Translations under genes and position numbers: made by a program | NCBI GenBank assembly: GCA_038736825.1 | Contig: JAVYME010000001.1 | Span: 72,708 to 104,707, forward strand | Direction: 5' to 3' | Length of the DNA stretch: 32,000 nucleotides | Source: Candidatus Iainarchaeum sp. | GTDB taxonomy: Archaea; Iainarchaeota; Iainarchaeia; Iainarchaeales; DTGL01 | Shown: positions 5,527 to 32,000 of the stretch, one piece after another | Numbering within the stretch: the first letter of the stretch is position 1 | Layout: each line of letters starts with the position of its first letter | Notes under the pieces: model-generated | Databases searched by the model: none | What the model saw: the letters and a program-made list of their open reading frames with translations, nothing else | Told to the model about the DNA's origin: nothing

Positions 5527-7011
5527 GTGTTTGTGGTGACTGAATTTGACAAATGGCCATTGATTGACAATTATTTCCGCAATAGAACCTTTGCAGACCT
5601 TGAAATACAGTCCTTTAACCAGTTCGTGGAAGAAAAACTTCCAGAAATAGTGGTGGAAAACCAAGACATAAGCCCAAAAATAGAAGAAGTGCGAGTGGAG
5701 GTTGCAAACATAGAGGTTTTAAGGCCGCGCGTTGTTGAAGCCGATGGCTCTCCAAGAAACGATTTTTGGCCAATAGAGGCACGCATAAGGAATCGCACTT
5801 ATTCTGGACCAATTTATCTGGATATGCGTTTGCTGCGAAGGGATGTAGAGCAGGACGTGAAAAGAGCCTATGTGGGCGAACTGCCAATAATGCTTAAATC
5901 CAACAAGTGCTGGCTTTACGGAAAAACCCCAGAAGAACTAATTGAAATGGGTGAAGATCCTTTAGATTTCGGGGGCTATTTTATAATCAATGGCTCGGAA
6001 AAAGCACTCATGACTCAAGAAGTGCTTAGCTCTGACCGAGTAATGATTTCTGAAAAGGTTCGAGGAGACGTCATAGCAGAAGTAATCAGCACTCGCGGAG
6101 CATTCAAGGGCCGCGTGAGAGTCATGAGGAAAAAAAACGGCTTGCTTTATGTAAGGTTTCCCAGTTCGCCAAAAAAACTCAAATTGTTTGTGCTCATGAG
6201 AGCCCTTGGAATGGAATCCGAAAACGACATAAAAGCAGCCTTCACAATCGGTGAAGAACAAGTCCAAAATGATGTGCTCTTGAACCTAGAACAAACCGAA
6301 ATAACAAAAGAAAAGGACGCTCTTGACAAGATAGGGAAAAGCGTTGCCCCAGGCCAAGTAATAGATTACAGGCTGAAAAGAGCCCAAGAAGTGGTTGATG
6401 GTTTTTTGCTTCCACACATTGGGCAAAGCAAAAGCGACAGAATTGCAAAAGCATACTATTTGGGAATGATGGCTTCAAAAGCAATAGAAAGAGCCTATGG
6501 TTTGAGGGAAGAGGATGACAAAGACCATTATGCAAACAAAAGGCTTGAATTGTCCGGCAAGCTCATGGAGCACCTTTTCAGGTATGCTTTCAAGTATTTC
6601 GTTAAAGACTTGAAATTCCAAATAGACAGGACTGTAACGAGGAGAAGAAAACTCAACATTAGCACAGTGGTTAGACCTGATGCAATAACTGAAAGAATCA
6701 GGTTTGCAATGTCCACTGGCAACTGGATTGGCAGAGCCACTGGTGTAAGCAAATTCATGGACCGCGTGAACTATTTGAGCCCTTTAACCGATATAAGGAA
6801 AGTCAAAAGCCCATTGAACAAAAACAGGGAATTATATGAAGCAAGAGATGTCCATGGAACACACTGGGGAAGAGTTGACTCTGTTGAAACCCCGGACGGA
6901 CCGCAATGCGGTTTAGTGAAAAACCTTTCCTTGATGGCAAGAGTCACCACTGACAGCCGCACTGAAACAATAGAGGAAATGCTTAAAGCAAAGGGAGTGA
7001 AACTAGACTAG
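5527..7011 (+). CDS. rpoB2: DNA-directed RNA polymerase subunit B'' (N-terminal half of split subunit B, Rpo2N)
   Basis: 494-aa ORF starting 2 nt after rpoH. AAGGTG lies at 5524-5529, and candidate GTG starts are at 5527, 5533 and 5536. Conserved blocks include GGYFIINGSEKALMTQE and HGTHWGRVDSVETPDGPQCGLVKNLSLMA. The ORF stops where B' begins. Confidence 0.95.
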   Translation: MFVVTEFDKWPLIDNYFRNRTFADLEIQSFNQFVEEKLPEIVVENQDISPKIEEVRVEVANIEVLRPRVVEADGSPRNDFWPIEARIRNRTYSGPIYLDMRLLRRDVEQDVKRAYVGELPIMLKSNKCWLYGKTPEELIEMGEDPLDFGGYFIINGSEKALMTQEVLSSDRVMISEKVRGDVIAEVISTRGAFKGRVRVMRKKNGLLYVRFPSSPKKLKLFVLMRALGMESENDIKAAFTIGEEQVQNDVLLNLEQTEITKEKDALDKIGKSVAPGQVIDYRLKRAQEVVDGFLLPHIGQSKSDRIAKAYYLGMMASKAIERAYGLREEDDKDHYANKRLELSGKLMEHLFRYAFKYFVKDLKFQIDRTVTRRRKLNISTVVRPDAITERIRFAMSTGNWIGRATGVSKFMDRVNYLSPLTDIRKVKSPLNKNRELYEARDVHGTHWGRVDSVETPDGPQCGLVKNLSLMARVTTDSRTETIEEMLKAKGVKLD

Positions 7012-7035
7012 GTTTTTTGAATAAAGGTGTGCTTT

Positions 7036-8853
7036 ATGGCGAAAGGCAATGCAAAGGTTTACATTAATGGAAGGCTTATAGGATTCCATCCAGCACCGGA
7101 AAAACTCACTCAAGAACTCATTGAGGCAAGAAGACAGGCAAAAATAGACTCTCAAATAAACATTGCATTAAACGAAATGACAAACGAAATATACATTAAC
7201 ACTGATTCCGGCAGAGTGCAAAGACCAGTGATTGTGGTTAAAGACGGAAAACCACTGTTAACCGAAAAACACGTTGAAAAAGTAAAAAACAATGAACTGT
7301 CATGGGATGACCTTGTAGAACAAGGCATAATAGAATACCTTGACGCAGAAGAAGAAGAAAACGCAATGATTGCCACAAAAGAATCCGAACTCACAAAAGA
7401 ACACACTCACATGGAAATAGAACCTGCTGGCATCCTGAGCGTCATAACAAACCTCATTCCATTTGTGAGCCACAACCTTAGCGGAAAAGCATTGCATGGC
7501 GCAAAAATGTTCAAACAAGCAGCAGGCATAGGGCAAATAAACTACAATCTAAGAACGGACACTGAAGGCTATTTATTGCACTACCCGCAAAAAAACCTTG
7601 TAAAAACCAAAACAATGGACTTAGTGCACATGGAATCAAGGCCTCAAAACCAAAACTTTGTAGTAGCAATCTTGCCCTATTACGGTTTCAACACTCTTGA
7701 CGCAGTAGTAATAAACAAGGGCGCTGTTGAAAGAAGCCTTGGAAGAATGGCTTACTTTCGCACTTATGAAGCCATGCAAACCAGATACCCCGGCGGGCAA
7801 AGAGACAAATTTGAAGTTCCAAGCGAGGAAACAGTTGGCTACCTTGGAAAAGAATACTATCACGCTTTAGGAGAAGACGGCTTTGCAGAAATAGAATCAA
7901 AAGTGAACGGCAAAGATGTAGTAATAGGCAGAACCTCTCCACCAAGATTCCTTGAAGAAGTCAGCGAATTCGGGGTAGTAAAAGAAAGAAGACGCGAATC
8001 CTCAATTACCGCAAGAAAAGGAAAAGAAGGATTTGTGGACAAAATATTCATTACAGAAAGCACTGACGGCGACATGCTTGTCAAAGCAAAAATCAGGAGC
8101 GACATGAGCCCAGAAGTGGGTGACAAGTTCTCTTCAAGGCATGGCCAAAAAGGAGTTGTCGGCGCAATAGTGCCGGAAGAAGACATGCCCTTTACAGCAG
8201 ACGGAATAAAACCAGATTTGCTCTTGAACCCACACTCTATTCCAAGCAGAATGACAATAGGGCACTTGTTGGAAATGCTTGCCGGAAAAGCCGCTTGCAT
8301 GAACGGCGAAATAGTTGACGGCACTCCATTCAAGGACGCAAAAAGAAGCGAGCTAGAGCAAATCCTTTTCGAGCACGGTTTCAGGCCGGACGGCAGAGAA
8401 GTCCTTTACGATGGAATTTCCGGTCAAAGAATAGACGGCAAAGTCTTCATAGGAGTGGTTGGATACAGGCGCCTTTACCACATGGTTGCCCACAAAATGC
8501 AGGCAAGAGCGCGCGGTCCAGTGCAAATACTTACAAGGCAACCAACAGAAGGAAAAGAAAAAGAAGGCGGTTTAAGGTTTGGGGAAATGGAAGGCGAAAC
8601 CCTAGTAGGACACGGTGCAAGCATGCTCTTGCAAGAAAAATTCATAGATGACTCTGACAAAGTAGTGGAACTGGTTTGCGAAAAATGCGGAATAATTGCA
8701 GTCAACGACAAGATAAGGAACAAAAAATATTGCCCGGTTTGCGGTAGTTCAAGGGTTTACGGAGTGGAAATGAGTTATGGCTTTAAATTGTTGCTGGATG
8801 AACTCAAAGCGTTGGGCGTTTACCCAAAACTCAACTTGGTGGACAAAGCATAG
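7036..8853 (+). CDS. rpoB1: DNA-directed RNA polymerase subunit B' (C-terminal half of split subunit B, Rpo2C)
   Basis: The ORF runs 7027-8853. ATG 7036 is preceded by AAAGGTG (7023-7029). Conserved blocks are GDKFSSRHGQKGVVG, RLYHMVAHKMQARARGPVQILTRQPTEGK and GGLRFGEMEGETL. A C-terminal Zn ribbon reads CEKCG...CPVCG. Confidence 0.95.
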   Translation: MAKGNAKVYINGRLIGFHPAPEKLTQELIEARRQAKIDSQINIALNEMTNEIYINTDSGRVQRPVIVVKDGKPLLTEKHVEKVKNNELSWDDLVEQGIIEYLDAEEEENAMIATKESELTKEHTHMEIEPAGILSVITNLIPFVSHNLSGKALHGAKMFKQAAGIGQINYNLRTDTEGYLLHYPQKNLVKTKTMDLVHMESRPQNQNFVVAILPYYGFNTLDAVVINKGAVERSLGRMAYFRTYEAMQTRYPGGQRDKFEVPSEETVGYLGKEYYHALGEDGFAEIESKVNGKDVVIGRTSPPRFLEEVSEFGVVKERRRESSITARKGKEGFVDKIFITESTDGDMLVKAKIRSDMSPEVGDKFSSRHGQKGVVGAIVPEEDMPFTADGIKPDLLLNPHSIPSRMTIGHLLEMLAGKAACMNGEIVDGTPFKDAKRSELEQILFEHGFRPDGREVLYDGISGQRIDGKVFIGVVGYRRLYHMVAHKMQARARGPVQILTRQPTEGKEKEGGLRFGEMEGETLVGHGASMLLQEKFIDDSDKVVELVCEKCGIIAVNDKIRNKKYCPVCGSSRVYGVEMSYGFKLLLDELKALGVYPKLNLVDKA

Positions 8854-18471: not shown

Positions 18472-19983
18472 TTGCGCAAAAAAGTTAAAAATTTCGCGCC
18501 TGCTTTGTCTGTGCAAGAAAGCATTTTTTTAGGTTTTGCAAAAGGAATTATTGCACGCATTGAAGAAAACCGCCAAGGCATTGCCTTTTGGATCGCACTT
18601 CTCTATTTTGTGTGCATTGTCAAGGCAATTTTTGGCTGGTTTGCAAGCCTGCTCACAACGTTTTCAAGGCCTGTTTTTTTCCTTGCCGGCTGGCCCTTGT
18701 TCTATTTCAACATATTTATTTCACTGGCACTAATTCTCTCTTTTTTCACTAAAGAAACAGTGGATAAAACCTCAAAAGCAGTTTTTGCCTTTTCTTTCAT
18801 TGTAATCATTATTCCGATTGTTGATTTCATTGCATATGGCCCTGAAGTGTGGCGCATCTTTCCAATGAGCATTGAAGAAATTGCTGCACAGTTTTTCTCT
18901 TTAGCTGGTCTTTTGCCTGGTTCTGTCCTGCACTTGGGGCAGGGCTTGACGTTTTGGTTAGCCCAAGCCCTGATTGCAGTGTATGTTTTCACCAAAAAAG
19001 GAAGTTGGCTGAAAGCATTGGGAGCAATGTTTTGCTTTTATGTAGCCTGTTTGGCATTATCCTCAGTCCCTTTCCTTGCATCCATCCTTTTTAGCCTTGG
19101 CAACACCTACAATTACACAGTAATAATGCACGGGCTCGCGCTATATGCGCTCTCAGCATTTTTGCTTGCTGTAATCTGGCTCTTTATCTATGACCGCGCA
19201 CTCCTAAAAAAAGTGGTTTTGGAATGCAAGCCTGAACGAGCCGCACATTATCTTGCCCTTGTGCTAATGGGCTGGCTTTATGCACTAACGCTTTTCTCAA
19301 TAGAAAAGCCCAATTTTTTGGGACTTTTTTTTGCGTCATTTTCAATTTTTTTGGCATTTGAAAGTGCTCTGGCGTGCAATAATCTATTTGACAAGGAATT
19401 GAAGGGTATCAAGGCAAGGCAATACCGCGGGATTTGCCTTTCGCTGTTCACCCTTGCCCTTGTTTTGGCATATTTTGTAGGAGAAACAATTTTTGCATTA
19501 GTGCTTTCAACAATGCTCCTTGGAATTGCCTACTCTGCAAAGCCAATTAGCCTAAAAAATCTCGGCTTTCTCAACAATGTGGTAATAGGCCTAATTTCAG
19601 CACTCGCATTCATTGTAGGCATTATCACACAAAACCCAAAAATTCCCTTTAATGCAACGCTTGCAGTTTTTGCAACATTCTCACTTGCAGCCAACATAAA
19701 GGACCTTAAAGACTTTGAATCCGATAAAAGGAAGGGCATTCAAACCCTGCCAGTGCTTTTGGGCAAAGAAAAAGGATTGAAAGTGATTGCTGTGCTTTCA
19801 TCAGTTTCCTTTATTATTCCAGCAGCTTTTTTAGACTATCCTAATTTATTGCTTGCGGGCATAATTTTTGGCACTCTAAACTTTCTGGCACTAATGAAAA
19901 CAAAAAAAGAAACTGCAACATTTGCACTATACTTCGCTTATGCCTTGCTATTTGCGCTTTCACTGCTTTATCGAATCCCTTGA
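18472..19983 (+). CDS. polytopic membrane protein with C-terminal UbiA-superfamily prenyltransferase-like domain (degenerate first Asp-rich motif)
   Basis: 503-aa ORF starting at TTG 18472, with GTG 18511 as an alternative. The C-terminal ~250 aa carry three blocks. NNLFDKELKGIKARQYRG (from 19378) stands in for NDxxDxxxD. AYSAKPISLKNLGFLNNVVIGL follows. DLKDFESDKRKGIQTLPVLLG (19702-19764) is intact. The N-terminal ~250 aa form an extra multi-TM region. Confidence 0.6.
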   Translation: MRKKVKNFAPALSVQESIFLGFAKGIIARIEENRQGIAFWIALLYFVCIVKAIFGWFASLLTTFSRPVFFLAGWPLFYFNIFISLALILSFFTKETVDKTSKAVFAFSFIVIIIPIVDFIAYGPEVWRIFPMSIEEIAAQFFSLAGLLPGSVLHLGQGLTFWLAQALIAVYVFTKKGSWLKALGAMFCFYVACLALSSVPFLASILFSLGNTYNYTVIMHGLALYALSAFLLAVIWLFIYDRALLKKVVLECKPERAAHYLALVLMGWLYALTLFSIEKPNFLGLFFASFSIFLAFESALACNNLFDKELKGIKARQYRGICLSLFTLALVLAYFVGETIFALVLSTMLLGIAYSAKPISLKNLGFLNNVVIGLISALAFIVGIITQNPKIPFNATLAVFATFSLAANIKDLKDFESDKRKGIQTLPVLLGKEKGLKVIAVLSSVSFIIPAAFLDYPNLLLAGIIFGTLNFLALMKTKKETATFALYFAYALLFALSLLYRIP

Positions 19984-19987
19984 AAAT

Positions 19988-20560
19988 TCAGGTTGCATTC
20001 GCATAAACCTTTAACAAATTGCCACCATCAGCGCAACCAGAAATGCATGCAACCTCAAAAACCAAAACGCCCTTTTCTTTTTTTTCTGCTTTTGCGCCAC
20101 TCTTTTCAACAATATCGCCAAAATAGGGCAATATAACCAAATCCAAAACCGTTGTCTTAGCCGGTGCAACAACAAACTGCACTGCAGAATAATTGGTTCC
20201 ATCAATTGCTGGAGAGGTAATCGCAAATGAAAAGGTTTTGCTCGACTTGTTGGATAAAACCAATCCCGTGGATTCCCCAATTGCAATCTCTGTCAAAGAA
20301 AAACCTTGTTCTGAAAGTGGCACCTCAATCATTGACACTTTGTCAAAAGAGAGAACCAATGGTTGTGATGGTTTGTAGTCAGGGTTTTCCTTCAAAAACT
20401 GGGAAACAAAATATGGTTTCAAAACAATATGAGGATTAGGATCTGGAGGCGGTTCGGCGGAAGGCCGTCCACCCCAATTAAAAACAAAAACAAATAAAGC
20501 CAGCAATATTGCAAAAACAACTATTCCCAAAACAGCCAGCTTCAAATACTTTTTATCCAT
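19988..20560 (-). CDS. N-terminally membrane-anchored hypothetical protein
   Basis: 190 aa. ATG 20560 is preceded by GGTGA. It has a TM anchor (LKLAVLGIVVFAILLALFVFVF), a Pro-rich linker (EPPPDPNP) and a beta-rich ectodomain. No family recognised. Confidence 0.6.
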   Translation of the reverse strand: MDKKYLKLAVLGIVVFAILLALFVFVFNWGGRPSAEPPPDPNPHIVLKPYFVSQFLKENPDYKPSQPLVLSFDKVSMIEVPLSEQGFSLTEIAIGESTGLVLSNKSSKTFSFAITSPAIDGTNYSAVQFVVAPAKTTVLDLVILPYFGDIVEKSGAKAEKKEKGVLVFEVACISGCADGGNLLKVYANAT

Positions 20561-20658
20561 TCTATCACCAATCCAAGCATAGTAAAATTAATATATGAGG
20601 TTATATATAATGCTTGTGCATTACATTGCATTGTTTTGACTCTTGTGAAGGTGAAAAA

Positions 20659-21864
20659 TTGGAAAAATCTGGAAAAAAAGGAACTATCGTGTTTTTACTA
20701 ATTACACTTTTAGTTGCACAAGTTTTTGCTGCAGATTGCCTGGATTGGATGGAATCACAATCTGGAAAAGAAGTGGGAGACAATATGAATGATGACGGCG
20801 TTTTAGGACCTGGGGAAACACTCGCAAATAATAAAACAAATAAGCCTGGAGAAATCGGAGTTAATAATGCAAGTACTGTTAAACAAATTGGCGAGAACTA
20901 CATTAATGGCTCAACTGTGCCTGTAACAATATCAAACGATAATGGCACAACAGTACAGACAGACCCAAACCTAAAATATGAACTCACTCCAATTTGGGGT
21001 TACAGCAAAGAGTACGGATTTTACGTTAGCGGTTGGAAAGTCAGTGCTGTGGAAGAGGAAACTGAAAAAGATCTGGATTTTGGTGAGGGTTGGACTCCAG
21101 TTAGTCCGACTCCAAAGCCTGTGACCCCTACTCCAACTCCAACGATAACTCTAACGCCAACACCTACGCTAACCCCTCTCCCAAACCAAGCACCAACCGC
21201 AGACTTTGAAATGTATCCAGAGCCAGCAAATGGCATGGTTCCTTTGACTGTAAAGTTTAAAGATAAAAGTTTTGACCCAGACGGTTCCATTGTTTCATGG
21301 AATTGGGAGTTCGGGGTAGGTACAATTGAAGGAACAAATTGTTGCACAAATAAGGAAACAAGCCATGTTTACACTTCAGCTGGCTATTATACTGTCCGGC
21401 TAACCGTAACAGACAACTTGGGGGCAACAGCATCTAATCAAAAATCTATAATTGCAATACAAAAAGCGGCAATAACAATTTTCAAATCAAACAATCCAGA
21501 AAACCCAAACCAGCCAGCACAAATTATTATTGCATGCGGCAAGCAGGCAGCCCTCCAATTGGAATTCCTTGACAAGGACAGCCAGCCACTTTCCGGAGTT
21601 CCAACTCAACTAATGGATGGAGCTCACGGCCTGCCATTTTGCAATATCACACCTACAATTCTCAACATAACTGGCTTTCCAAAACCAGGGCTTTATCAAA
21701 TAAAGGCAAACATTCTTGGAGAGGAGTGCACTAATTGTCCAAAAACGATCCACATAGTTGTCGGTCAAGAAATGCCAGAACTCCAAACTCCAGAAATCCC
21801 AGCAATACTAACCGCAGTAATCGCACTTGCAGTGATTGTCATCACAAACAGGAAAAAGAAATAA
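20659..21864 (+). CDS. secreted PKD-domain surface protein with Thr/Pro linker and C-terminal TM/basic anchor
   Basis: The ORF runs 20614-21864 from a TTG. TTG 20659, preceded by AGGTGA, gives the signal peptide KSGKKGTIVFLLITLLVAQVFA/AD. A Thr/Pro linker spans 21100-21189. The PKD domain spans 21190-21440 (LTVKFKDKSFDPDGSIVSWNWEFGVGT...SHVYTSAGYYTVRLTVTDNLGA). The C-terminus is IPAILTAVIALAVIVITNRKKK. Confidence 0.8.
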   Translation: MEKSGKKGTIVFLLITLLVAQVFAADCLDWMESQSGKEVGDNMNDDGVLGPGETLANNKTNKPGEIGVNNASTVKQIGENYINGSTVPVTISNDNGTTVQTDPNLKYELTPIWGYSKEYGFYVSGWKVSAVEEETEKDLDFGEGWTPVSPTPKPVTPTPTPTITLTPTPTLTPLPNQAPTADFEMYPEPANGMVPLTVKFKDKSFDPDGSIVSWNWEFGVGTIEGTNCCTNKETSHVYTSAGYYTVRLTVTDNLGATASNQKSIIAIQKAAITIFKSNNPENPNQPAQIIIACGKQAALQLEFLDKDSQPLSGVPTQLMDGAHGLPFCNITPTILNITGFPKPGLYQIKANILGEECTNCPKTIHIVVGQEMPELQTPEIPAILTAVIALAVIVITNRKKK

Positions 21865-21925
21865 AAAAAGCCAATATATTAGTTCAAAGAGAAAAAAAGC
21901 AGGGGGACAATTTTTGGTTTGCTCC

Positions 21926-23494
21926 CTATTTTTTTCCTTTTTTTTCTTGTGTTGATTTTTTTAACAATAGTTCTCTTTCTTGTTGTAGTTTGAGGAGTCT
22001 TTCCCTGTAAGCGCTTTCTGAAAGCCGTCTCTTGAAAAAATCCAGTTTTGCTTTTTTTTCAAGTTCTGAAATTTTTTCAAGGCGCCTTTCAATGGAGCGC
22101 TTTTCCAGTTGCTTGAGTTTTTTTCTCCAAAAAAATGCTGAAATTGAAAGAATTAAGGCTGTTATTCCGCCTCCAAAAACAATTATTTTGCCCCAATCTA
22201 TGGGTTCAATTATTTCTGTTGAAATCTTTGCTTTTCCTGAAAAAGGCGGTTTTAAAACAATTTCAATGGTGTGGGTTCCCTGTAAAGCAAATGGCAGGCT
22301 TGCAGAGCAAAAGCCTTTTTCAGTGCAGGAAAGAGTAATTGAGTGCTGTTTTTCGTCAATGTAAAGCAATGCTTCAACCTCATTGCTTGCAACTTGTTGT
22401 CCTTCCACTTGTACTTCTATTTTTGTAGCTCCGCCACGACTTTCAGTTCTGCCTTCCATTGGGAAAACGAACAAAACCTGGTTTTCAGTCGGGCTTGCCC
22501 CTTCTGGAGAAAGCATTTCAAGAGAAAAACTGTTTTTTTCAGTTTTTGTTCCAGAAGCGTTTTTGCCTGAAACAGTTATCTTCAATTCACTGTCTTTCTC
22601 GCTAACGGGGCGCGTGAATTCTGCACTCCAGGCTCCTCCTGCAAAAGACAATTTTTTTCTTTCCAGTATTTTTTCTTTTGACAAAAGCCAAGCCTCAAAA
22701 TCCCCGCTGTTGACAACAGTTTCTTTTTGGTGAAGAGAAAAGGAAATTTTTCCAACAGGCGAGCCAAAAAAATATTTCTGTTCTTCATTGAAGGGATTGC
22801 GGACTTGAATGGTTGCTGGCTTGAAGAAAAGCGGAATGAAAAAAGTTTTTTCCTTTGAGCCTGCAAGCGCTGCCTTCAATTCCAGTTTTTCAAATTCTTC
22901 AAAGGAAGCGTCTGGAACAAAAGAGCCTTCCAAAAAAAGGTTTTTGGAATCCCATTGCAAGGCAATGCTTTTGCCTTTTATTAAGGCACTAAAATGGGAA
23001 AAGGCTTCCTTTTCACTTGAACCCAAAAACCTTTGAATGTAGGAATTGTCTTTGTCCAAGAAAGCAATACGTATCTTTTTTTCAACTCCTGTTTCGATTG
23101 CAATATCCTGTCTTGCCTCTGAAGAGGGCGGCAAAAATGCTTTGAATTCAGTTCTCGTGATTCGCACTGGCACTGTTTTTTCCCCTAAAAGCATGCCGTT
23201 GTCCTTAAGCTTTATTTGTGCTTTTACTTGAAAGGTTTTCGGGGAAAAATCTATTGCTTCAAGGTAATATGCATGGCTTGCAAAAGGGCTTTCGGTTGAA
23301 ATTTCAGTGCCATCCCCAAAACTCCAAACAAAATCCAAAACGCTTTCAGGAAAATTTTCCAGCTTTAAATTGAAATCCACTGCTTGCGCTTCAAATGCCT
23401 CGCTAGTGCTCGCTGAAAGCCCGAAATCAAGCGAGCTATGGGCAAATGGCAAAAGCAAGAAAAGAAAGGCTGCCAAAAAAAGGCTTTTTGCCAT
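21926..23494 (-). CDS. secreted PKD-like/Ig-like repeat surface protein with C-terminal TM and basic coiled-coil tail
   Basis: The ORF runs 21926-23500 from a GTG. ATG 23494 is preceded by GGAGAGGTGA. It has the signal peptide MAKSLFLAAFLFLLLPFAHS and a PKD-like unit (FVWSFGDGT...SHAYY), followed by beta-rich modules. The TM helix is at about 22127-22195 and the 66-aa tail at 21929-22126. Confidence 0.8.
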   Translation of the reverse strand: MAKSLFLAAFLFLLLPFAHSSLDFGLSASTSEAFEAQAVDFNLKLENFPESVLDFVWSFGDGTEISTESPFASHAYYLEAIDFSPKTFQVKAQIKLKDNGMLLGEKTVPVRITRTEFKAFLPPSSEARQDIAIETGVEKKIRIAFLDKDNSYIQRFLGSSEKEAFSHFSALIKGKSIALQWDSKNLFLEGSFVPDASFEEFEKLELKAALAGSKEKTFFIPLFFKPATIQVRNPFNEEQKYFFGSPVGKISFSLHQKETVVNSGDFEAWLLSKEKILERKKLSFAGGAWSAEFTRPVSEKDSELKITVSGKNASGTKTEKNSFSLEMLSPEGASPTENQVLFVFPMEGRTESRGGATKIEVQVEGQQVASNEVEALLYIDEKQHSITLSCTEKGFCSASLPFALQGTHTIEIVLKPPFSGKAKISTEIIEPIDWGKIIVFGGGITALILSISAFFWRKKLKQLEKRSIERRLEKISELEKKAKLDFFKRRLSESAYRERLLKLQQERELLLKKSTQEKKGKK

Positions 23495-23496
23495 TT

Positions 23497-26400
23497 TCAC
23501 CTCTCCTTGTAAAGCCTTGCCAAAACCATTTCAATTACTTTTTCACTATAGCCCTCGTTTCTAAGCCCTCTTGCCACCTCTTCTCTTGAAAACTCTCCGA
23601 TTCTTCCGCAAAGTCTTGTTGTGAGCACTATGGCTTGAACTTTTTCAGGCGCTTTCTTGAAATCCTTTGAGGGAAAAACTGTTTTCCAAAAGCCTGTTTT
23701 AATCCAAAAACCGCTTTTTAATAGAGAATCAATGCATTTCAGTCCTTTGCTTAAAAGCCTTATTTGTTCGCCGAGCTCGCTTTCAGAAATATGCCTTTTG
23801 AAAAACTCAAACTTGTATTTTTTCTCCAGTCCAGTCAAGCGCTCTTTTTCCCTAAGCAAGAAAGCCCTTTCAGAAAAAACATTTCTTAAAAGCAATGCAA
23901 GGAAAACCAGGATTACAATGCAAGCAAAACCGAAAGCCAGCAAAGCAAGGCTTAAGCCTTGCTCAATGGTTGCAATAACTGTTCCTTCTCCAGAAAAATC
24001 TTCTTTTAAAACAAGCTTGAGTGAATGCGTTCCAGCCAGCAAGGGCGAACTCAAAACCCCCTTGTGCAATTTTTCTTTTTCGTCAAACTTGAGTGAAACA
24101 GGCTGCAGGTTGCCGTCAACCAGCAAATCGCTGTTCAATGCAATGTTGGCAAACAAGTGGTTGTTGGGCTGGAAAAACCTAACACTTATCTCGCTTATTT
24201 TGCCATTCCAGGGCTTGTTCAAGCCAGCGCTGGGTTGAACAAAAACCATTTGCAGGTTGTTTGAAAGTGAAATTGTTAAAAACTCTAAATCCATCAATTC
24301 TTTGCCGTCAAGAGTGGCGTGTGCTTCAAGCCGGCAGCTCACGCTTTTTTTGCCAGAATCCTGCAATGGCAAAAGGATTTTCGCAGAATATTGCTGGCTT
24401 TCTTTATCAAAATCCATTTCCTCCAAAAAATCCAGTTCAGGGCATTCCACAATGATTTTTTTGTTTTTAACCTTGTAATTGTCTGAAAGAATTTTTGCCT
24501 TCAAGTTAACTGTTTGCCCGAAAGCATACTCGCGCTCACTGTTCACTGGCTCCAATATTGAAATAACCAGTGCCGAGTTTTTTGCAAGCGGAACCGCTTG
24601 CACTTCATCAACCTTGTTGCCTGCAGCATCCCTGCCCTTCAATTTCAACTTTAAACCATGCAAAAAATCGGTTTCATTCACAGTATGGTCAAAATAAAGC
24701 GTGTAATCAAACTCGTTTTTTTCAATTCTCACTTCTTCCTCTTTTTTGCCTGAAACAAGCACTGCCCTTAACTCGCTTGGAAAAACCACGATTATGCCGT
24801 TCAACAAAAACATTACTTTGGCTTTTTCAAGGGAATCAAGCAAAAAATATTTTTTGCCCTTGAAGACATTGGTTGCCTTGAAAAAAGAAGGCTCAAAAAA
24901 CACTGGCGCTTTTGCATGGAACTCGCGCTTTTCCCCCTTAACCTCACTCAAAGCATGAATTTCCAAGAATTCAGTTTCAGAAAGCGAACTCCAAGGCTTA
25001 AAAATTCCCTCAAAAATTGTTCCAGAACAATGCATTTCAACCAGCGAGCCAGCAAGCAAAACCCTGAGCGAAATTCCTTGACAAGCAATCCTTTCATCGG
25101 CTTCATCCAAAAACTCCAAGCGCACATTCAAATCCCTTTGCTTTGAATTTGTCTGCACATGGGTTGGCTCCAAAACTCTTGCCTTAAACTTGGACTTTAA
25201 AACCTTAACCTTAACCTCTGCGCCTGCAGTCTGCCCTTTGGAATCACTAACGCGAACCTTCACCAAAAACTCTCGCTCTTTCTCCAAACCCAAAAAATAA
25301 GCGTGAAATGCCTCTCTCTGGCTTGCATTAGAGTCATCACCGAAATCCCAGAAAAATTCAAGCGACTCTTCATTCAAAGCATTAGTGATTGCAGTGAAAT
25401 AAAAATATTGTCCTTCAAATTGCTGCCTGCTTTCAGGGTCAACCAGTACTGTCAAAACCTGCAATGGCTCGTCCTTTAAAGAAGTTTTAAAGGACAAAAC
25501 AGGGCTTTCCCTTGAAAGGCTTTGCGTTGAAGAAACTGCCTTGAAAAAATAGTTTGTTTCCGGTTTCAATCCAAGCAAGTGGATTTTGTGGTGAATTGTT
25601 TTAGTGCCGTCAAAAACCCTTGAACCCAAAGCACTGGTTTCACCGAACTCCACTGCAGAATCGGATTGCACTAAAGTGTTCCAGTAAACCTTTGCATGAG
25701 TGGCAAAAGCAAAAACCTGAACATTTTTTGGATCAATATCCTGCAATCCTGCTTTCAAAATGCAGCGGTTTTCTTGACTGCAATAAAAGCCTTCCTCGCA
25801 CTTTGCAGTGCAATCAATTTTTTGCCCGCAATTATTGCTTTTAGAACCACACTCGCTCTCGGAACACGAAAGGGCTTTGCAGCATTTTCCATTAATGCAA
25901 TTCCAGCCAGCACTGCAAGAGCACTGAATTGTGCCACCGCAATCATTTGAAAAAGAACCGCATTGTCCTGCAAAATCCCTTGAACACGACTTGCAGGATT
26001 GCAAGCATTTCCCGTTCAAGCAACCCCCCGAACAAAACTCGCTTTCAATCCTCGAGCAATCCGCATTAGAGTAAACCCTTGTAGAACCAGAACAAAACCA
26101 TCCTTGAACACAAGGTTGAAGCAAACCACTAGAAGCAGCACTAGAACCCTGTGGTTTGCACTCAGGACACAAAGAACTGCCATCACCTGATTGTGATAAA
26201 TTTTGTCCTGGCATTTGATAAACAGCTGCAGGAGAGCCCTTAGCTTTTGATTGCAAATAATCATCATATGGGTCGCCCCCCTTAGACAAATCCTCATAAG
26301 AACCACCGGCAGGTGCCGCTCCATCATCTTGTCCTAGCTCATTTACTCCTCCTGTAGCTCCTGTTTGACTCAAGCCATCATCATTTTGGACAAAAGTTGG

Positions 26401-26676
26401 AGTGGAAGCGCCATCAGCAGCCCCGCTAGGCAAACTTGGGCCAGGCGAGTTGTTAGTTGGGGGATTGAGTGCGTCGTCTGAAACAGGGCAATCTGGACAG
26501 TAGTATGCGCCTGTGCCTTCGGTTACAGCAAAATATGCTGTTTTTTCTTTAGGCAAGGCTAATGAAAAGAAACCGGTTTTTTCGCTTAAAATGGTTTCAT
26601 AAAACAGCCAGGTTATGGCTAGCACTAAAACTATTGCCAACAAAAAGGCAGGCTTTTTTGAAAAAACTGAAGGCAT
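23497..26676 (-). CDS. 1059-aa mosaic surface protein (N-terminal hydrophobic segment, acidic disordered region, Cys-rich repeats, FN3-like, PKD-like, Ig-like modules, TM, 129-aa cytoplasmic tail)
   Basis: An uninterrupted 1059-codon ORF with these parts in order. N-terminal TM or signal: 26599-26652. Gly/Ala/Ser/Asp/Pro-rich region: about 26122-26481. Cys-rich region: about 25762-26169. FN3-like unit: 25483-25740 (AKVYWNT...VEFGET...HHKIHLLGLKPETNYFFKAVS). PKD-like unit: 25192-25464 (FFWDFGDDS...FHAYF). TM helix: 23887-23955. Tail: 23500-23886. Confidence 0.85.
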   Translation of the reverse strand: MPSVFSKKPAFLLAIVLVLAITWLFYETILSEKTGFFSLALPKEKTAYFAVTEGTGAYYCPDCPVSDDALNPPTNNSPGPSLPSGAADGASTPTFVQNDDGLSQTGATGGVNELGQDDGAAPAGGSYEDLSKGGDPYDDYLQSKAKGSPAAVYQMPGQNLSQSGDGSSLCPECKPQGSSAASSGLLQPCVQGWFCSGSTRVYSNADCSRIESEFCSGGCLNGKCLQSCKSCSRDFAGQCGSFSNDCGGTIQCSCSAGWNCINGKCCKALSCSESECGSKSNNCGQKIDCTAKCEEGFYCSQENRCILKAGLQDIDPKNVQVFAFATHAKVYWNTLVQSDSAVEFGETSALGSRVFDGTKTIHHKIHLLGLKPETNYFFKAVSSTQSLSRESPVLSFKTSLKDEPLQVLTVLVDPESRQQFEGQYFYFTAITNALNEESLEFFWDFGDDSNASQREAFHAYFLGLEKEREFLVKVRVSDSKGQTAGAEVKVKVLKSKFKARVLEPTHVQTNSKQRDLNVRLEFLDEADERIACQGISLRVLLAGSLVEMHCSGTIFEGIFKPWSSLSETEFLEIHALSEVKGEKREFHAKAPVFFEPSFFKATNVFKGKKYFLLDSLEKAKVMFLLNGIIVVFPSELRAVLVSGKKEEEVRIEKNEFDYTLYFDHTVNETDFLHGLKLKLKGRDAAGNKVDEVQAVPLAKNSALVISILEPVNSEREYAFGQTVNLKAKILSDNYKVKNKKIIVECPELDFLEEMDFDKESQQYSAKILLPLQDSGKKSVSCRLEAHATLDGKELMDLEFLTISLSNNLQMVFVQPSAGLNKPWNGKISEISVRFFQPNNHLFANIALNSDLLVDGNLQPVSLKFDEKEKLHKGVLSSPLLAGTHSLKLVLKEDFSGEGTVIATIEQGLSLALLAFGFACIVILVFLALLLRNVFSERAFLLREKERLTGLEKKYKFEFFKRHISESELGEQIRLLSKGLKCIDSLLKSGFWIKTGFWKTVFPSKDFKKAPEKVQAIVLTTRLCGRIGEFSREEVARGLRNEGYSEKVIEMVLARLYKER

Positions 26677-26879
26677 ACTATACTTAAGGTTTCTTTTTTA
26701 TTAATCTTTTCCTTGCTCTTTCAGAAAGGTTTGAGAAAGCAAAACCATTAAAACACAAAAAAACAGCAAAACAATAAAAAGTTATGGCCAGGCAGTGCAA
26801 TTAAAAACATTTTTAAAAACATACAACATAACTATTTTTAATTAAATAATGAAATTTTTTGGCGTGGAGGGGTTTGAGA

Positions 26880-28151
26880 ATGCTTTTCGGTTTTCCTTTG
26901 AAATTCTTTGACCAAAAATTTAAACCAGTTGCTTTTTTATCGGTTTTGGCTTTACTGGTTTTTTTTGCCTCGAATTCTTTTGCTCAACAAAGAGTGGAAC
27001 TGGCAAATCCAGTGTGCTTTTATGATGTCAATCAAATGCACGAATACTTTACTGACTTGCAGGGCAATAAAATTCCAAACCTGGACTTTATAAGGCTTTT
27101 TAGCGCTATTGAAGCAAAACCCCAAAACGACCCTTCAATAAAGGACGAAATAAAGCGCGCGCTCAGGGGACAATTTTATACTGGTTATTTGCAGCTCGCT
27201 TACACTATTGAAGGCGGAAAAAAGAACCCTTTCAAGGGAGGCAATTATGCTAAATGCGATTTAGGTTGCTTTCCACAATTTACTTATTTTGGGAGAACCT
27301 ATTACAACAAGTGCATTACAAGGATTTGCACTGAGGGCAGAATGGTTGGCACTCCTCGTTTTTGTGATCCAAAAATCGGACCCGATATTTACATTCACTA
27401 CCTGACTTTTTGGTGCGAAGATGTTCCACAGGCAACAATGATTTGCGGGCCGTCAGCTCATTGCGAGCAAAGAGCGGATGGCACTTTTTTGTGTGAATAC
27501 AATAGCGCAACTTCTTCAAACCAAAGCAATGGCGTGGAATATGTTTTGGTTGCTCCAGCGGATTCAAGCTCTCAAATAATGGTTGCAGCATACCAGAACG
27601 GAAAGCTCATTGCAAGCAAGCCGATTGGCACAACAGGCCCTGTTCATGCAAGCCAGGCTTATGCTTTTGCGCAAAGCACTGGATTGGCTTCGGTTGTGGC
27701 TTCAGCACTCCAGCAAAAAACAACAACCACTGCTTCCAGTAAGCCTAGCACAACCTATTCTGCATCATACAATGGCAGCACAAACTATTCTTCAACTCCA
27801 ATAAGAATGCAGGTTGTTGCTAGTGCCACAAAAGGCCTTTCAGCCTATAGAGCGCCAACTGCAACCTACAAAACATATTCAACCACAAGCACAGCCAGCA
27901 CTGCAACATACGCTTACAGCACAAGCCAAACCAAAAGCACTTCTGCAAGCAGTTATTCTTCAAGCACAACTTATTCGCCAACAAAAACCACTTATAGCAA
28001 TACGGTTTCACCTTATTCAACTTCAAATTACAGGATTCAAGCAACAACTTATAATCCGACAAGGACAGCATACTCTACAAACGCTTACACAAGCACTTAC
28101 AGCACCACAACACAGGCTACGGCGAGTGTTTCAAAATACAGGCAAACCTGA
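26880..28151 (+). CDS. secreted protein with Cys-containing N-domain and long Ser/Thr/Tyr-rich C-terminal tail, no anchor
   Basis: The ORF runs 26859-28151 from a TTG. ATG 26880 is preceded by GGAGGGG (26866-26872). The signal peptide is FKPVAFLSVLALLVFFASNSFA/QQ. The low-complexity S/T/Y tail spans 27717-28148. Confidence 0.7.
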   Translation: MLFGFPLKFFDQKFKPVAFLSVLALLVFFASNSFAQQRVELANPVCFYDVNQMHEYFTDLQGNKIPNLDFIRLFSAIEAKPQNDPSIKDEIKRALRGQFYTGYLQLAYTIEGGKKNPFKGGNYAKCDLGCFPQFTYFGRTYYNKCITRICTEGRMVGTPRFCDPKIGPDIYIHYLTFWCEDVPQATMICGPSAHCEQRADGTFLCEYNSATSSNQSNGVEYVLVAPADSSSQIMVAAYQNGKLIASKPIGTTGPVHASQAYAFAQSTGLASVVASALQQKTTTTASSKPSTTYSASYNGSTNYSSTPIRMQVVASATKGLSAYRAPTATYKTYSTTSTASTATYAYSTSQTKSTSASSYSSSTTYSPTKTTYSNTVSPYSTSNYRIQATTYNPTRTAYSTNAYTSTYSTTTQATASVSKYRQT

Positions 28152-28178: not shown

Positions 28179-29465
28179 TCAGGTCGTTTCCAGAAGCCAT
28201 TTCCATAAAGGCATAAACCTTATTTTTTTACCCTTGTATTCTTCAATTCCTTCAAAATCAGCGTTAACCACCAGCAAATTGTTACACTTGAGCTCTGTGC
28301 TTGCTTTGAGCAGTCCTTCAAGTTCTCGTTTTTTGGTTTCAAAATCACTCAAATCATAGCAAACCTGAATTAACTGGAGCACCTTTGGACCTTCCTTTAA
28401 AACAAAATCAACCTCTTTGCCTGAAGAGTCCTTCCAGTAATAGATTTCTGCAGGGGCTTCCAAATAAGACTTTCTCCTAAGCAATTCAATTGCAACCGCA
28501 TTTTCAACAAGCTTGCCATAATTTTGGCTTAATTTGAAAGAAACCGCGTTTACAAGGCCAGTGTCAATACAATAGATCTTTTTAGGGGCTTTGATTTGCT
28601 CTTTCAACTTGGGTGAAAATCTTTCAAGTTTGAAAAACAAATAGGAGTTTTCCAAATAAGCAATCCAATTGGACACCGTGTGAGTGCTCTTTAAGCCCAA
28701 AATGTTTTTCAGCCGGTTGTAAGTTAATTCAGAAGAGGTATTGGAAATCAAATACCTTGAAAGCTCTTTAAGTTTCGAAACATATTTTATTTTATACCTT
28801 TGAATTACGTCCTTTTCAATGATGTCACTATAAGTTTCTATAAGAAACAGTCTGCCCAGCTTAAAAGCCAGGGGAAACCCGCCTTCACGCAAATATCTTT
28901 CCAAAAAATTCTTTAATTTTGCAACAGACTTTGTGGAATACTGGTCTTTTTTATCAAACTCAACCCCAGCATAATCCAAAAACTCTCTGAAGCTGAACGG
29001 AAAAAGAACAAAATCAATATGCCTGCCGGTTAAAAAAGTGGAAAGCTCTTTACTCATCAATCGCGCATTGCTGCCAGTGACAATTACCTTCTTCCCAGTG
29101 CTGACTCTAGAAACAAAACGCTCCCACCCACTAACATTCTGGATTTCGTCAAAAACAAGAAGGCTAACATCGCCTTTTAAAGAATAAACTGCCTCTATAA
29201 CTGAATTCAAGTCACGAACAGCCACGCCGAGTCGCTCATCTTCAAAATTCACATATCCTCTCCGGTCTGATTCAAAACATTGAAAAGCAAAAACAGACTT
29301 GCCACATCGCCTGACACCGGTTATTATCACTATAACATCCGTGGAAATAAACTTTTTAACTTGGCTAAGGCATTCCCTCTCAATAATTCGCTCACTCTTG
29401 AACTTATCAAGCAAAGCCTCTTCTCTGTCCACAATTGCAGATTTAATATCCCCCAACAAAACCAT
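28179..29465 (-). CDS. AAA+ ATPase of the AAA_14/DUF4143 (COG1373) type
   Basis: Walker A is ITGVRRCGKS and Walker B is LLVFDEIQNVSGWE. The C-terminus has the DUF4143-typical YYWKDSSGKEVDFVLKEG. ATG 29465 (MVLLGDIKSAIV) lies about 27 nt downstream of a TATA-like box. The ORF-track start at 29510 is a TTG inside the promoter palindrome and is unlikely. Confidence 0.85.
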   Translation of the reverse strand: MVLLGDIKSAIVDREEALLDKFKSERIIERECLSQVKKFISTDVIVIITGVRRCGKSVFAFQCFESDRRGYVNFEDERLGVAVRDLNSVIEAVYSLKGDVSLLVFDEIQNVSGWERFVSRVSTGKKVIVTGSNARLMSKELSTFLTGRHIDFVLFPFSFREFLDYAGVEFDKKDQYSTKSVAKLKNFLERYLREGGFPLAFKLGRLFLIETYSDIIEKDVIQRYKIKYVSKLKELSRYLISNTSSELTYNRLKNILGLKSTHTVSNWIAYLENSYLFFKLERFSPKLKEQIKAPKKIYCIDTGLVNAVSFKLSQNYGKLVENAVAIELLRRKSYLEAPAEIYYWKDSSGKEVDFVLKEGPKVLQLIQVCYDLSDFETKKRELEGLLKASTELKCNNLLVVNADFEGIEEYKGKKIRFMPLWKWLLETT

Positions 29466-29476
29466 AAAAAAAAAGT

Positions 29477-29513
29477 AACGCAAAGATTTTAAAAAACTTT
29501 GCGTTGGCAACGC
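29477..29513. promoter_or_regulatory. perfect 9-bp inverted repeat bracketing the TATA-like box of the AAA ATPase gene, plus an overlapping 5-bp palindrome
   Basis: AACGCAAAG (29477-29485), an 11-nt spacer ATTTTAAAAAA, then CTTTGCGTT (29497-29505). GCGTT-GGC-AACGC (29501-29513) overlaps the right arm. The spacer is the TATA-like box about 27 nt upstream of ATG 29465 on the minus strand. Confidence 0.45.
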
Positions 29514-30610: not shown

Positions 30611-31410
30611 ATGAAAAGATTTGGTTTTTTGCCTTCAGTTTTTTACTGTCTCGCCATGTTCGGCTTGATTTTCACGCTAGTGGCAGCCCAAGAAGAAGTA
30701 AGGCAGCTTTCCATTAAAATTGAAGGCTTGCGCTATGTAAGGCATGAAACAGTAACCATTACGGCGCTTTTTGATGGGCAACCCGTTGCTGGCGTTGATG
30801 TAAATGTTTTTTTCAAAGATTTGAACCTGAAAAAACAGACCAAAACAAAATAATATTGCAAAGAATAGAAGATTATAAGACAGACAGTCAAGGCAAGTTT
30901 TCCTTTAAATTGCATGAAGCCGGCACTTACTTTTTATTTTTTGCCAAAAAAGAAGGAACCATTTTTTACGCAGCAAGCGAAAAAATAGATTTTTTGATAA
31001 ATCCAAGACCATATTTCAGTGCAAGCAATGGCGTTTACAATCTTTGCTTTAGGGAACCAATTGGCTCAATAACAATCATTGAAGGCGAGAAAAGAACAAC
31101 CCAAAGCCTTGATGAAAACAATTGCACTCAATACTCTCCAAAAACAGAGTCCTTCACAGTTGAAACCCCTTACAGCAAAGAATTCAAAAAGATTTCAATA
31201 CCAGTAAAAGTTGAAACAGAAAAACCAACCCCTGTCCCAACACAACCCACTCCAATACAAACACAATTTGAAGAAAAAACAAAGCCGATTTCACAACCAA
31301 AAACACAAACCCAGCCAGACTTACTGTTACCTATCAGCATATTGTTAGTTGCAAGCATATGCTTGGTTGCTGCAGGAGTTTACCTCAGAAAACGGAGGAT
31401 GAATTCATGA
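30611..31410 (+). pseudogene. surface-anchored protein gene interrupted by a frameshift (signal-peptide half 30611-30853, anchor half 30856-31410)
   Basis: ORF1 (ATG 30611) encodes a signal peptide (MKRFGFLPSVFYCLAMFGLIFTLVAAQ) and the start of a beta-sandwich-like unit (TITALFDGQPVAGVDVNVFF), then stops at 30851-30853. The other frame is open from 30799. It continues the same kind of unit (KTDSQGKFSFKLHEAGTYFLFFAKKEG) and ends in a Thr/Pro/Gln stalk, a TM helix and RKRR. It has no signal peptide of its own. A 1-nt insertion anywhere in 30799-30851 fuses the two ORFs. Confidence 0.6.
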
Positions 31411-32000
31411 AAAAAATACTCTTTGTTTTGGCTCTTTTTTTAATGCTTTCCTGTGCCAATGCAGCAAAAAAAATCCAGCTCACTGTAGAAGACGACGGCA
31501 TTGACCCAGTAACCCCAGAAGAAGATGCTGACACAAAAGACAAAGCATACCTTGTAGTAGGACCAGGGCCTTACACTTTGACAGTCAAAATCCAAAACTT
31601 GCAGGAAATAGAAGAGTTTGGCGGTCCAGTTGATGTAATGGCTTTATTTGATGCCAGTTATAGCTTTAATGATGAAATCGAGGTTGTCAAAAATGACATA
31701 GAAAAACTTGGAGCAGAACTGGATCAAAACTGCCAAAAAATAGGCATTCCGGGGTGCTTCAATTTAGGGCTTTACGTTTTTGAAGGAGGCACTTGCGCTA
31801 GAAATTGTTCCAACCAATATGTTTGCACTCAAATAAATTGCAGAATAGTCACAGTTAAAGATTGGTGCACTGAGTGTACTGTAATAACAATTCCAGGCAA
31901 GTGCCAAGTTTGCGATTATGAAACTGAATGCCGTGAGGTTTGTGAATTGCGTGATAACGTGAAAGTATGCTGGCCAGAGTGCCACGAAGTGCCAAAAAAC
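31407..32000 (+). CDS. secreted (lipobox-like signal) vWA-like protein with Cys-rich insert, 5' part; continues beyond window
   Basis: I translated this by hand; it is not in the ORF track because there is no stop inside the window. ATG 31407 overlaps the upstream stop (ATGA). The signal is MKKILFVLALFLMLSCANA. A MIDAS-like beta-strand plus DxSxS reads PVDVMALFDASYSFNDE, with DASYS at 31650-31664. Dense Cys follows (CTQINC..WCTECTV..GKCQVCDYETECREVC..). Confidence 0.6.
   Translation, partial: MKKILFVLALFLMLSCANAAKKIQLTVEDDGIDPVTPEEDADTKDKAYLVVGPGPYTLTVKIQNLQEIEEFGGPVDVMALFDASYSFNDEIEVVKNDIEKLGAELDQNCQKIGIPGCFNLGLYVFEGGTCARNCSNQYVCTQINCRIVTVKDWCTECTVITIPGKCQVCDYETECREVCELRDNVKVCWPECHEVPKN

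Follow-up and report, generated by a model that had tools for sequence, protein, structure and literature searches.

A recurrent long/short pair of immunoglobulin-like surface proteins with a conserved cytoplasmic tail in Iainarchaeota

A 32,000-nucleotide stretch of contig JAVYME010000001.1 from Candidatus Iainarchaeum sp. (the window, in which all coordinates below are counted) carries three adjacent genes for putative surface proteins, a plus-strand gene A and two minus-strand genes, B and C (Table 1). Genes B and C, the short and the long partner of a pair, encode single-pass type-I proteins (N-terminus outside, C-terminus inside) whose outer part is a rod of immunoglobulin (Ig)-like domains, four in B and five in C. 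Both proteins belong to a family in which the same long-then-short arrangement of genes recurs, and we consider it an even bet that they form an adhesin- or receptor-like surface complex coupled to a cytoplasmic partner, a function that we infer. The original prediction, read from the DNA sequence, had presented A, B and C as equal members of one locally expanded family sharing the same modules in the same order: a PKD-like unit, an FLD unit, a membrane-proximal unit in B and C, and a single C-terminal helix. All three open reading frames (ORFs) are present with the ends given in that prediction, as is every motif quoted from them. The common order of modules stands for B and C, while A shares with them only the PKD unit and ~24-40 residues of the next domain. 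The products of B and C are identical to two hypothetical proteins encoded on a 157-kb contig of a Candidatus Diapherotrites archaeon metagenome-assembled genome (MAG) at NCBI, QXK06_00370 and QXK06_00375, respectively.

Paralogy and domain architecture of B and C

Two segments are aligned by BLASTP, B 30-320 / C 416-691 at 2e-12 and B 193-500 / C 666-972 at 1e-13; they are offset by ~100 residues, which one extra domain in C accounts for. The similarity spans the PKD-like unit, the FLD unit, the membrane-proximal unit, the surroundings of the transmembrane (TM) helix and the cytoplasmic tail, and identifies B and C as true paralogs along all of B rather than as proteins alike in their PKD unit only. 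The second segment also bears out the membrane-proximal unit that had been proposed as common to both, and the divergent N-terminal heads that had been described are supported for these two proteins. The layout of B is a signal peptide, D1 (PKD), D2 (FLD), D3, D5, a TM helix and a cytoplasmic tail; D4 is missing from it, as seen both in the BLAST offset and in an alignment gap in the B-type rows. The Cys-rich head of C has no Pfam match, and similar knot-like Cys modules occur in the heads of other family members and of the A-type protein in locus L001. Between this head and D1 lies a match to Pur_ac_phosph_N (PF16656) at C aa 325-398 (25.8 bits, gathering cut-off 30); precomputed annotations list the same match in P0004/P0005 and in the long partners of L001 and L008. 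A hydropathy scan finds the predicted single C-terminal hydrophobic helix in A, B and C. The cytoplasmic tail past the helix, which the original prediction had not mentioned, comprises 66 residues in B and 123 in C and is conserved in both.

A PKD-like unit had been claimed for all three proteins. In A it exceeds the Pfam cut-offs clearly, with 57.5 bits for PKD (PF00801; cut-off 23.5) and 53.8 bits for PKD_4 (PF18911; cut-off 27). The corresponding scores of B (19.4 and 18.4 bits) and C (15.7 and 24.6 bits) fall just below those cut-offs, and here the assignment is backed by hhalign, which pairs the PKD unit of A with that of B/C at 83% probability, by the relatives (27 of 31 family members match PKD in Pfam at E <= 0.01) and by a beta-sandwich in the predicted structure. 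The FLD unit is less evenly shared. B and C share it as a homologous domain of ~100 aa, which lies within the first of the two BLASTP segments. In A, only ~24 residues of the region align to B/C, with a probability of 41% when a 6-sequence profile is used and 20% with a 30-sequence profile. When the PKD and FLD units are compared jointly, the profile of A matches that of B/C at 94.8% (E 5e-8, 106 columns). The remaining B/C domains served as decoys within the same proteins, and the second domain of A matched none of them in profile-profile comparison.

The motif that gave the FLD unit its name occupies 21553-21585 in A, 23042-23074 in B and 25093-25125 in C, and the coordinates first assigned to it fall within these spans. 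The letters F-L-D themselves are not invariant, for orthologs carry FFEAD, FRDDF, FFDSR, FYDKD or IFDNK; what recurs in D2 is a beta-strand that ends in Asp and is followed, in many members, by Gly/Asn-x-Pro. When 30 D2 sequences were searched against Pfam (including the Big_x, Invasin and CARDB families), no family was matched by more than one member and the best E-value was 0.018, while the D2 profile found nothing below E 0.03 among PDB sequences. That neither the FLD nor the membrane-proximal module had been recognised as a named family is supported, no Pfam, NCBIfam or PDB family being matched. In the predicted structure the FLD module is an ordinary beta-sandwich and not a new fold.

AlphaFold models were obtained for both proteins. 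The model of B, built from five sequences, is of mediocre confidence (predicted local distance difference test, pLDDT, 62) and consists of an all-beta ectodomain followed by helices. With a 70-sequence family alignment, the core of C (aa 408-1059) was modelled at pLDDT 96 and a predicted TM-score (pTM) of 0.70. This core comprises five stacked beta-sandwiches and a long helix that runs through the membrane to about residue 959, after which a second helix makes a hairpin at the KR-ISE motif described below and leads into a three-helix end domain. The GTH..VLK..FSG motif of the membrane-proximal unit corresponds to the last two strands of D5, the final Ig-like domain. Foldseek comparison of the B and C models with the PDB returned protocadherins, MG domains of alpha-2-macroglobulin and complement, CSF-1R/KIT, titin, DSCAM, SiiE, Bap and the S-layer protein SbsB, with no specific structural relative for either model. 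The models and these tandem Ig-like arrays confirm the stacked Ig-like domains that had been predicted.

Family, cytoplasmic tail and gene pairing

A word-indexed search with B and C returned only two to three relatives, an impression of a tiny family that was superseded by an exhaustive HMMER profile search. The B/C profile matched 3902 proteins at E <= 1e-3. Among the best 150 of these, ~70 match the full profile in one stretch, and, judging from the same 150, many of the 3902 appear to be multi-PKD proteins. B and C themselves match the profile over hmm 1-522 and 22-520, respectively (for C, the core at aa 408-1002). The search thus delineates a family of at least 70 clusters at 50% identity, which we take to be previously undescribed, a literature search having found no paper that describes it. 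Every member whose source names the organism comes from an Iainarchaeota (Diapherotrites) MAG; the pattern used to scan genomes for C-type genes, [YF]K[FY]EF[FY]KR, is very strict and returned 5 loci, so the taxonomic breadth is under-sampled. The common plan of the family is a signal peptide, a variable head, a PKD-like domain, four more beta-sandwich domains, one TM helix and the cytoplasmic motif, the last often followed by a Lys/Glu/Pro-rich linker. Some members have no head; in others it is made up of Cys-rich knots, FN3, extra PKD domains, Big-like domains or very large Cys-rich regions. TM-anchored surface proteins rich in Ig/PKD domains were already known from DPANN genomes (bioRxiv 10.1101/2023.10.27.564410); the novelty lies in the family itself, its signature in the cytoplasm, the RecX-like end domain and the recurring long/short pair, none of which is in Pfam or NCBIfam. 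In 31 members scanned against Pfam, PKD alone was recognised among the family domains, and a search of Pfam and NCBIfam with the head of C, the middle domains of B/C, the tail of B, and the head and second domain of A gave nothing usable.

The claim of a locally expanded family was right as to expansion, though the expansion is not merely local: besides the number of clusters, the long-then-short pair recurs in three sequence-divergent contig groups. A 292-kb archaeal contig (JGI Ga0314843_0000019) holds at least seven paralogs, dispersed or neighbouring, with different heads. The same contig (L014 5405-11878; L015 2682-19828; L013 8001-12491) includes two adjacent, divergently transcribed members of 1491 and 625 aa, and a 20-kb stretch of it contains three members. 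Four contigs (L008 10562-12256, L012 10368-11603, L015 13621-15314 and L016 5009-6695) have, downstream of a family member, an opposite-strand block with genes for an acetyltransferase, a ~225-aa protein (weakly DUF3368-like in some) and a ~185-aa protein, of which L012 has the last two only. The presence of the same block in four contigs suggests positional orthology of those members across related genomes.

The family signature that follows the TM helix is L..LKKxKxE[FY][FY]KRxISExE[FY]. It reads DFFKRRLSESAY in B and EFFKRHISESEL in C, and in both proteins its core, E[FY][FY]KRxISExE[FY], lies within ~60 residues past the TM helix. A looser, position-tolerant regular expression finds the motif in 59 of 69 members. 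Comparison with orthologs identifies the tail as the best conserved region of B, with 62-65% identity as against 33-52% in the ectodomain and 21-25% in the TM helix. In C, the same comparison places the tail motif among the regions of highest conservation (66-74%, with 69-74% in the end domain and 50-69% in most of the ectodomain). The tightest sequence constraint is therefore on the cytoplasmic side of the membrane, which favours a surface protein in communication with the cell interior. A SHOCT-like identity of the motif was rejected on the lack of any SHOCT match in Pfam, GvpG was matched by 7 of 30 members with a best E-value of only 0.019, and profiles of the tail and of the end domain found no meaningful match among PDB sequences.

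About a third of the members end in a ~50-residue domain of the form ...[FY][ST]RxEI...EG[FY]S..V...V..L[FY]. Of 21 members, 11 match RecX_HTH1 (PF21982), with a best E-value of 4.7e-7. Depending on the fragment, C scores 17.5-22.9 bits against this family (21.5-22.9 bits for the domain itself), short of the 26-bit cut-off. The last ~26 residues of the end domain of C (SREEVARGLRNEGYSEKVIEMVLARL) fall on helices 2 and 3 of the three-helix RecX repeat. The domain differs from RecX proper in being a single copy that closes a membrane protein, in scoring below the cut-off in C and in having no RecA-related context. The tail of B has no RecX-like domain, and the domain is missing from many members.

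A long gene followed by a short one, with a short or overlapping junction, is found in the window and in L001/L003, L002, L004, L005, L008-L010 and L017. In the window, GGAGAGGTGA overlaps the TGA stop codon of C, and two bases separate that stop from the ATG of B. This overlap and the 2-base gap suggest one operon with coupled translation. The P0161-P0162 pair of L008-L010 is divergent in sequence and occurs in three metagenomes, and in the pair formed by P0200 and a 605-aa protein (L017) D2 is the first domain of either protein. A gene for a ~1170-aa S8 peptidase (L008/L009 382-3921) immediately precedes the P0161-P0162 pair in the same orientation. The end domain is present on exactly one partner in all five complete pairs checked (window, L001, L002, L004 and L008); L005, whose downstream gene is truncated where the contig ends, and L017 stand outside this count. 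Its carrier is the long partner in the lineage of the window and the short partner in L008, where a QGY variant, lying outside the regular expression, was identified by eye. Taken together, the pairing of long and short paralogs, the likely translational coupling and the presence of one end domain per pair suggest a hetero-complex.

Adhesion, envelope and regulatory readings

B and C have the build of type-I cell-surface proteins, with a semi-rigid Ig-like stalk, a variable distal head and a constrained tail in the cytoplasm, and most likely serve in adhesion or recognition at the surface of the cell while being coupled to a cytoplasmic partner. In the mechanism that we propose, the two proteins would be co-transcribed and would lie alongside each other in a complex, in contact along their homologous stalks, TM helices and juxtamembrane helices. 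The head of the long partner would bind an external ligand, which may be another cell, a surface or a polymer, and the conserved tail together with the end domain would hold a cytoplasmic partner. By holding such a partner, the complex would work like an adhesion or receptor molecule and not like a passive coat protein. Such communication with the cell interior is uncommon among the described prokaryotic Ig-like adhesins. The DPANN archaea, Iainarchaeota included, are believed to depend for their living on contact with other cells and, to our knowledge, almost no DPANN surface protein has a known role; attachment to a host or to another cell by B and C is plausible. Among the Foldseek matches to the C model, the top ones are eukaryotic Ig-type cell adhesion molecules (CAMs), cadherins and class III receptors (protocadherin 6vg4, CSF-1R 4wrm, KIT 8dfm, DSCAM 3dmk), with which C shares a type-I organisation, a beta-sandwich rod of about five domains, one membrane-spanning helix and a conserved tail in the cytoplasm. 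The tails of those eukaryotic proteins bind intracellular partners. The shared fold, however, is generic, and B and C contain no kinase or catenin-binding sequence; the relation is one of analogy, not homology. We also considered a more specific form of this reading, in which the pair would be the archaeal equivalent of an adhesion receptor built as a heterodimer: two paralogous Ig-rod chains would be paired by their TM and juxtamembrane helices, the variable head would recognise a partner cell or surface, and the invariant KR-ISE helix and the one RecX-like domain of each pair would recruit a cytoplasmic effector. We regard this as rather unlikely; if true, it would represent an outside-in coupling device in small-genome archaea that arose independently of the eukaryotic CAMs.

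Several observations weigh against an adhesion or receptor complex. Members encoded by single genes exist (L011, L012, L013), hence pairing is not obligatory, and the evidence for a heterodimer consists of the gene pairing and the complementary end domain. The Foldseek matches are generic, with TM-scores of 0.15-0.22 and ~10% identity, and they include S-layer proteins and alpha-2-macroglobulin. Signal peptides and topology of A, B and C were judged by Kyte-Doolittle hydropathy alone, and B and C contain no known ligand-binding or signalling domain. According to the main rival explanation, B and C are envelope proteins, either S-layer or S-layer-anchoring, the long partner forming or decorating the canopy and the short one acting as stalk, like SlaA and SlaB of the Sulfolobales. 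Those two are likewise adjacent large and small genes for Ig-rich envelope proteins, SlaB being anchored by a C-terminal TM helix (bioRxiv 10.1101/2023.10.27.564410). S-layer-like proteins with tandem Ig-like domains and a C-terminal TM helix have been proposed in the DPANN archaeon Nanobdella (bioRxiv 10.1101/2023.10.27.564410), the S-layer proteins 7ptp and SbsB (4aq1) are among the Foldseek matches, and the long/short operon recurs widely. The surface proteins of the Nanobdella aerobiophila type resemble the B/C family further in their signal peptide, their four to five Ig/PKD-like domains, their several paralogs per small genome and their presumed surface role (bioRxiv 10.1101/2023.10.27.564410). 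The B/C family differs from them in its fixed domain order, few sequons, cytoplasmic helix motif, optional RecX-like domain and long/short pair. It differs from SlaA and SlaB in that B and C are mutual paralogs, both TM-anchored and both with a conserved tail, and no similarity to these proteins appeared in any library search. A TM helix with a strongly conserved cytoplasmic tail in both partners is needless for a coat protein, and paralogs that differ in their heads may number up to seven or more in a genome. The N-glycosylation sequons number 1 in B and 4 in C, compared with 13-52 in proposed DPANN envelope proteins (bioRxiv 10.1101/2023.10.27.564410); dense sequons and the lack of a conserved cytoplasmic domain, two features taken here as marks of archaeal S-layer proteins, are thus not what B and C display. 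Another, possibly unrelated protein, A0A2G9N319, has been proposed as the S-layer protein of Iainarchaeota (bioRxiv 10.1101/2024.05.28.596244). On balance, we find an envelope role for the pair unlikely.

The tail and the end domain would also fit membrane-tethered sensors or regulators, in which an outside ligand alters the helix-turn-helix-type RecX-like end domain, for example by its release or by sequestration of a partner. The RecX_HTH1 matches of the end domain, the long Lys/Glu/Pro-rich linker that tethers it in many members and the strong constraint on the tail speak for such a function. Nevertheless, the end domain of C stays below the RecX_HTH1 cut-off, RecX repeats are protein-binding modules and not proven DNA binders here, many members (B among them) have no end domain, and no evidence of a kinase, a protease site or DNA binding was found; we consequently hold a regulatory role to be quite improbable. 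A more sceptical explanation would treat A, B and C as unrelated PKD-domain proteins whose further motifs reflect chance or composition. In its favour, BLASTP E-values between A and B or C are no better than 0.006-0.022, just 24 columns align in the FLD region of A, and the pattern 'hxhxhxD..G.P' after a beta-strand is common in bacterial Ig-like domains. For B and C this explanation is refuted by their alignment along all of B, including the cytoplasmic regions and those flanking the TM helix, and the profile adds ~70 full-length relatives. Even for A, its PKD and next domain match the same two domains of B/C and no other, an A-type hidden Markov model (HMM) matches B at E 9.5e-6 over these two domains (hmm 7-138), and an A-type gene lies beside or near a pair in three genomes. 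As an account of all three genes, a chance resemblance is highly improbable. For the B/C pair, the present analysis offers a fold predicted with high confidence, a cytoplasmic motif that is diagnostic of the family and an arrangement of two genes that recurs, where domain libraries see PKD only. Should the function of the pair prove merely structural, the annotation of a recurrent pair of 'hypothetical proteins' would still be improved.

Gene A and the genomic setting

Gene A is a separate PKD surface protein with a C-terminal signal of its own, and it is paired with a small membrane protein of its own. Its layout comprises a signal peptide, a head, a Pro/Thr linker, the PKD domain, a Cys-containing second domain and a C-terminal TPEIPAIL-helix-NRKKK segment, the protein ending 5 residues past its hydrophobic helix. 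It has no full-length match to the B/C family profile and lacks the cytoplasmic KR-ISE motif. The weak BLASTP similarity and the partial profile match indicate that A is at most a distant relative of B and C, through the PKD domain and the start of the next one. Its ortholog in L001, from a related MAG, is a 630-aa protein that is 44% identical over aa 176-401, a range covering PKD domain, second domain and anchor. The 190-aa membrane protein encoded divergently from A is 41% identical (E 3e-42) to a 199-aa protein encoded divergently from the A-type gene of L001. This conserved partner gene and the sorting-signal-like C-terminus contradict the equal third membership that A had been given. In L002 a fragment of an A-type gene is convergent to a B-type gene, the same arrangement as in the window, and in L001 the A-type gene lies ~3.6 kb upstream of the C-type gene.

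The C-terminus of A is possibly an archaeosortase-type sorting signal. With archaeosortase/exosortase signals (Loki-CTERM, NF033507, and the PGF-CTERM type) it shares a TPEIPA motif, a hydrophobic helix and a basic cluster, NRKKK, at the end. It differs in scoring 18.6 bits against the NCBIfam Loki-CTERM cut-off of 19.9, in having two orthologs that are not matched and in the absence of an archaeosortase gene from the 32-kb window. The NCBI record of gene A (P0009, 371 aa) begins ~30 codons downstream of the start used here and is without the signal peptide. The TTG at 20659 follows GGTGA, has a TTATATATA box ~45 nt upstream (window 20614-20730) and gives a typical signal peptide, like that of the L001 ortholog.

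Table 1 Positions of genes, domains and other features in the window
Feature	Position	Strand	Description and basis
Gene A	20659-21864	+	401 aa from TTG; ORF list
Gene B	21926-23494	-	522 aa; short partner; ORF list
Gene C	23497-26676	-	1059 aa; long partner, type-I membrane protein; ORF list
C-B junction	23494-23512	-	GGAGAGGTGA overlaps TGA stop of C, then AA, then ATG of B
C N-terminal hydrophobic segment, aa 1-31	26584-26676	-	Signal peptide or signal anchor; Kyte-Doolittle scan
C Cys-rich head, aa 183-306	25759-26130	-	24 Cys in three knot-like modules
C FN3-like (Pur_ac_phosph_N-like) domain, aa 311-405	25462-25746	-	Pfam, 25.8 bits against cut-off 30
C D1, PKD-like beta-sandwich	25195-25455	-	FFWDFGDDS...FHAYF; Pfam, motif, model
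C D2, FLD beta-sandwich	24892-25191	-	VRLEFLDEA is an early beta-strand, model residues 109-117
C D3, beta-sandwich	24586-24888	-	AlphaFold model
C D4, beta-sandwich, missing from B	24259-24573	-	Alignment, BLAST offset, model
C D5, membrane-proximal beta-sandwich	23962-24255	-	LAGTHSLKLVLKEDFSGEGTV, last two strands; BLASTP, model
C transmembrane helix	23869-23955	-	Hydropathy, model
C cytoplasmic juxtamembrane helix	23707-23865	-	LEKKYKFEFFKRHISESE, family signature motif
C C-terminal RecX_HTH1-like three-helix domain	23500-23646	-	GEFSREEVARGLRNEGYSEKVIEMVLARLY; Pfam, model
B cytoplasmic tail	21929-22126	-	LEKKAKLDFFKRRLSESAYRERLLKLQQE; without RecX-like domain
A PKD domain	21184-21444	+	Pfam PKD aa 190-259, 57.5 bits; PKD_4 aa 176-262
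A second domain	21445-21774	+	LQLEFLDKDSQPL...ECTNCPKT; first ~24-40 residues alone resemble B/C D2
A C-terminal anchor	21775-21864	+	Possible archaeosortase-type sorting signal; conserved in three orthologs
190-aa N-terminally anchored membrane protein	19988-20560	-	Divergent neighbour of A

The convergent genes A and B are separated by a 61-bp spacer (21865-21925) in which T runs on both strands flank a short, G+C-rich imperfect inverted repeat, a structure compatible with a bidirectional archaeal terminator. Upstream of the three genes lies an RNA polymerase B''/B'/A'/A''-L30e-NusA-S12-S7-EF-2-EF-1alpha-S10 block, and after it a UbiA homolog. Within this block (5527-8853), subunit B of the polymerase is divided into B'' (494 aa) and B' (608 aa), as is known from several euryarchaeal and DPANN lineages. 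The UbiA-family prenyltransferase (18472-19983, plus strand), located between S10 and the surface-protein cluster, has a ~300-aa multi-TM N-terminal extension. A UbiA gene (L011 6680-7456) adjoins the family member P0141 too, which may be a coincidence.

On the other side of the cluster, a 430-aa ORF (26859-28151, plus strand) is divergent from C; it has a signal-peptide-like N-terminus, a Cys-rich middle and a long low-complexity tail rich in Ser, Thr and Tyr. It matches no Pfam family and is not kept beside the C-type gene in L001, and it looks like a further secreted or surface protein. A gene for an AAA_14/DUF4143 ATPase (28179-29510, minus strand) follows, between the surface-protein cluster and an RpiB-archease pair. 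RpiB and archease flank the A-type gene in L001, which indicates that the region has been rearranged between the two genomes. An ORF that runs off the end of the window (31402-32000, plus strand) begins with the signal peptide MKKILFVLALFLMLSCANA and contains DVMALFDASYSF, which we take to resemble the metal-site motif of von Willebrand A domains, and then a Cys-rich stretch; it would be another surface-protein gene at the edge of the window.

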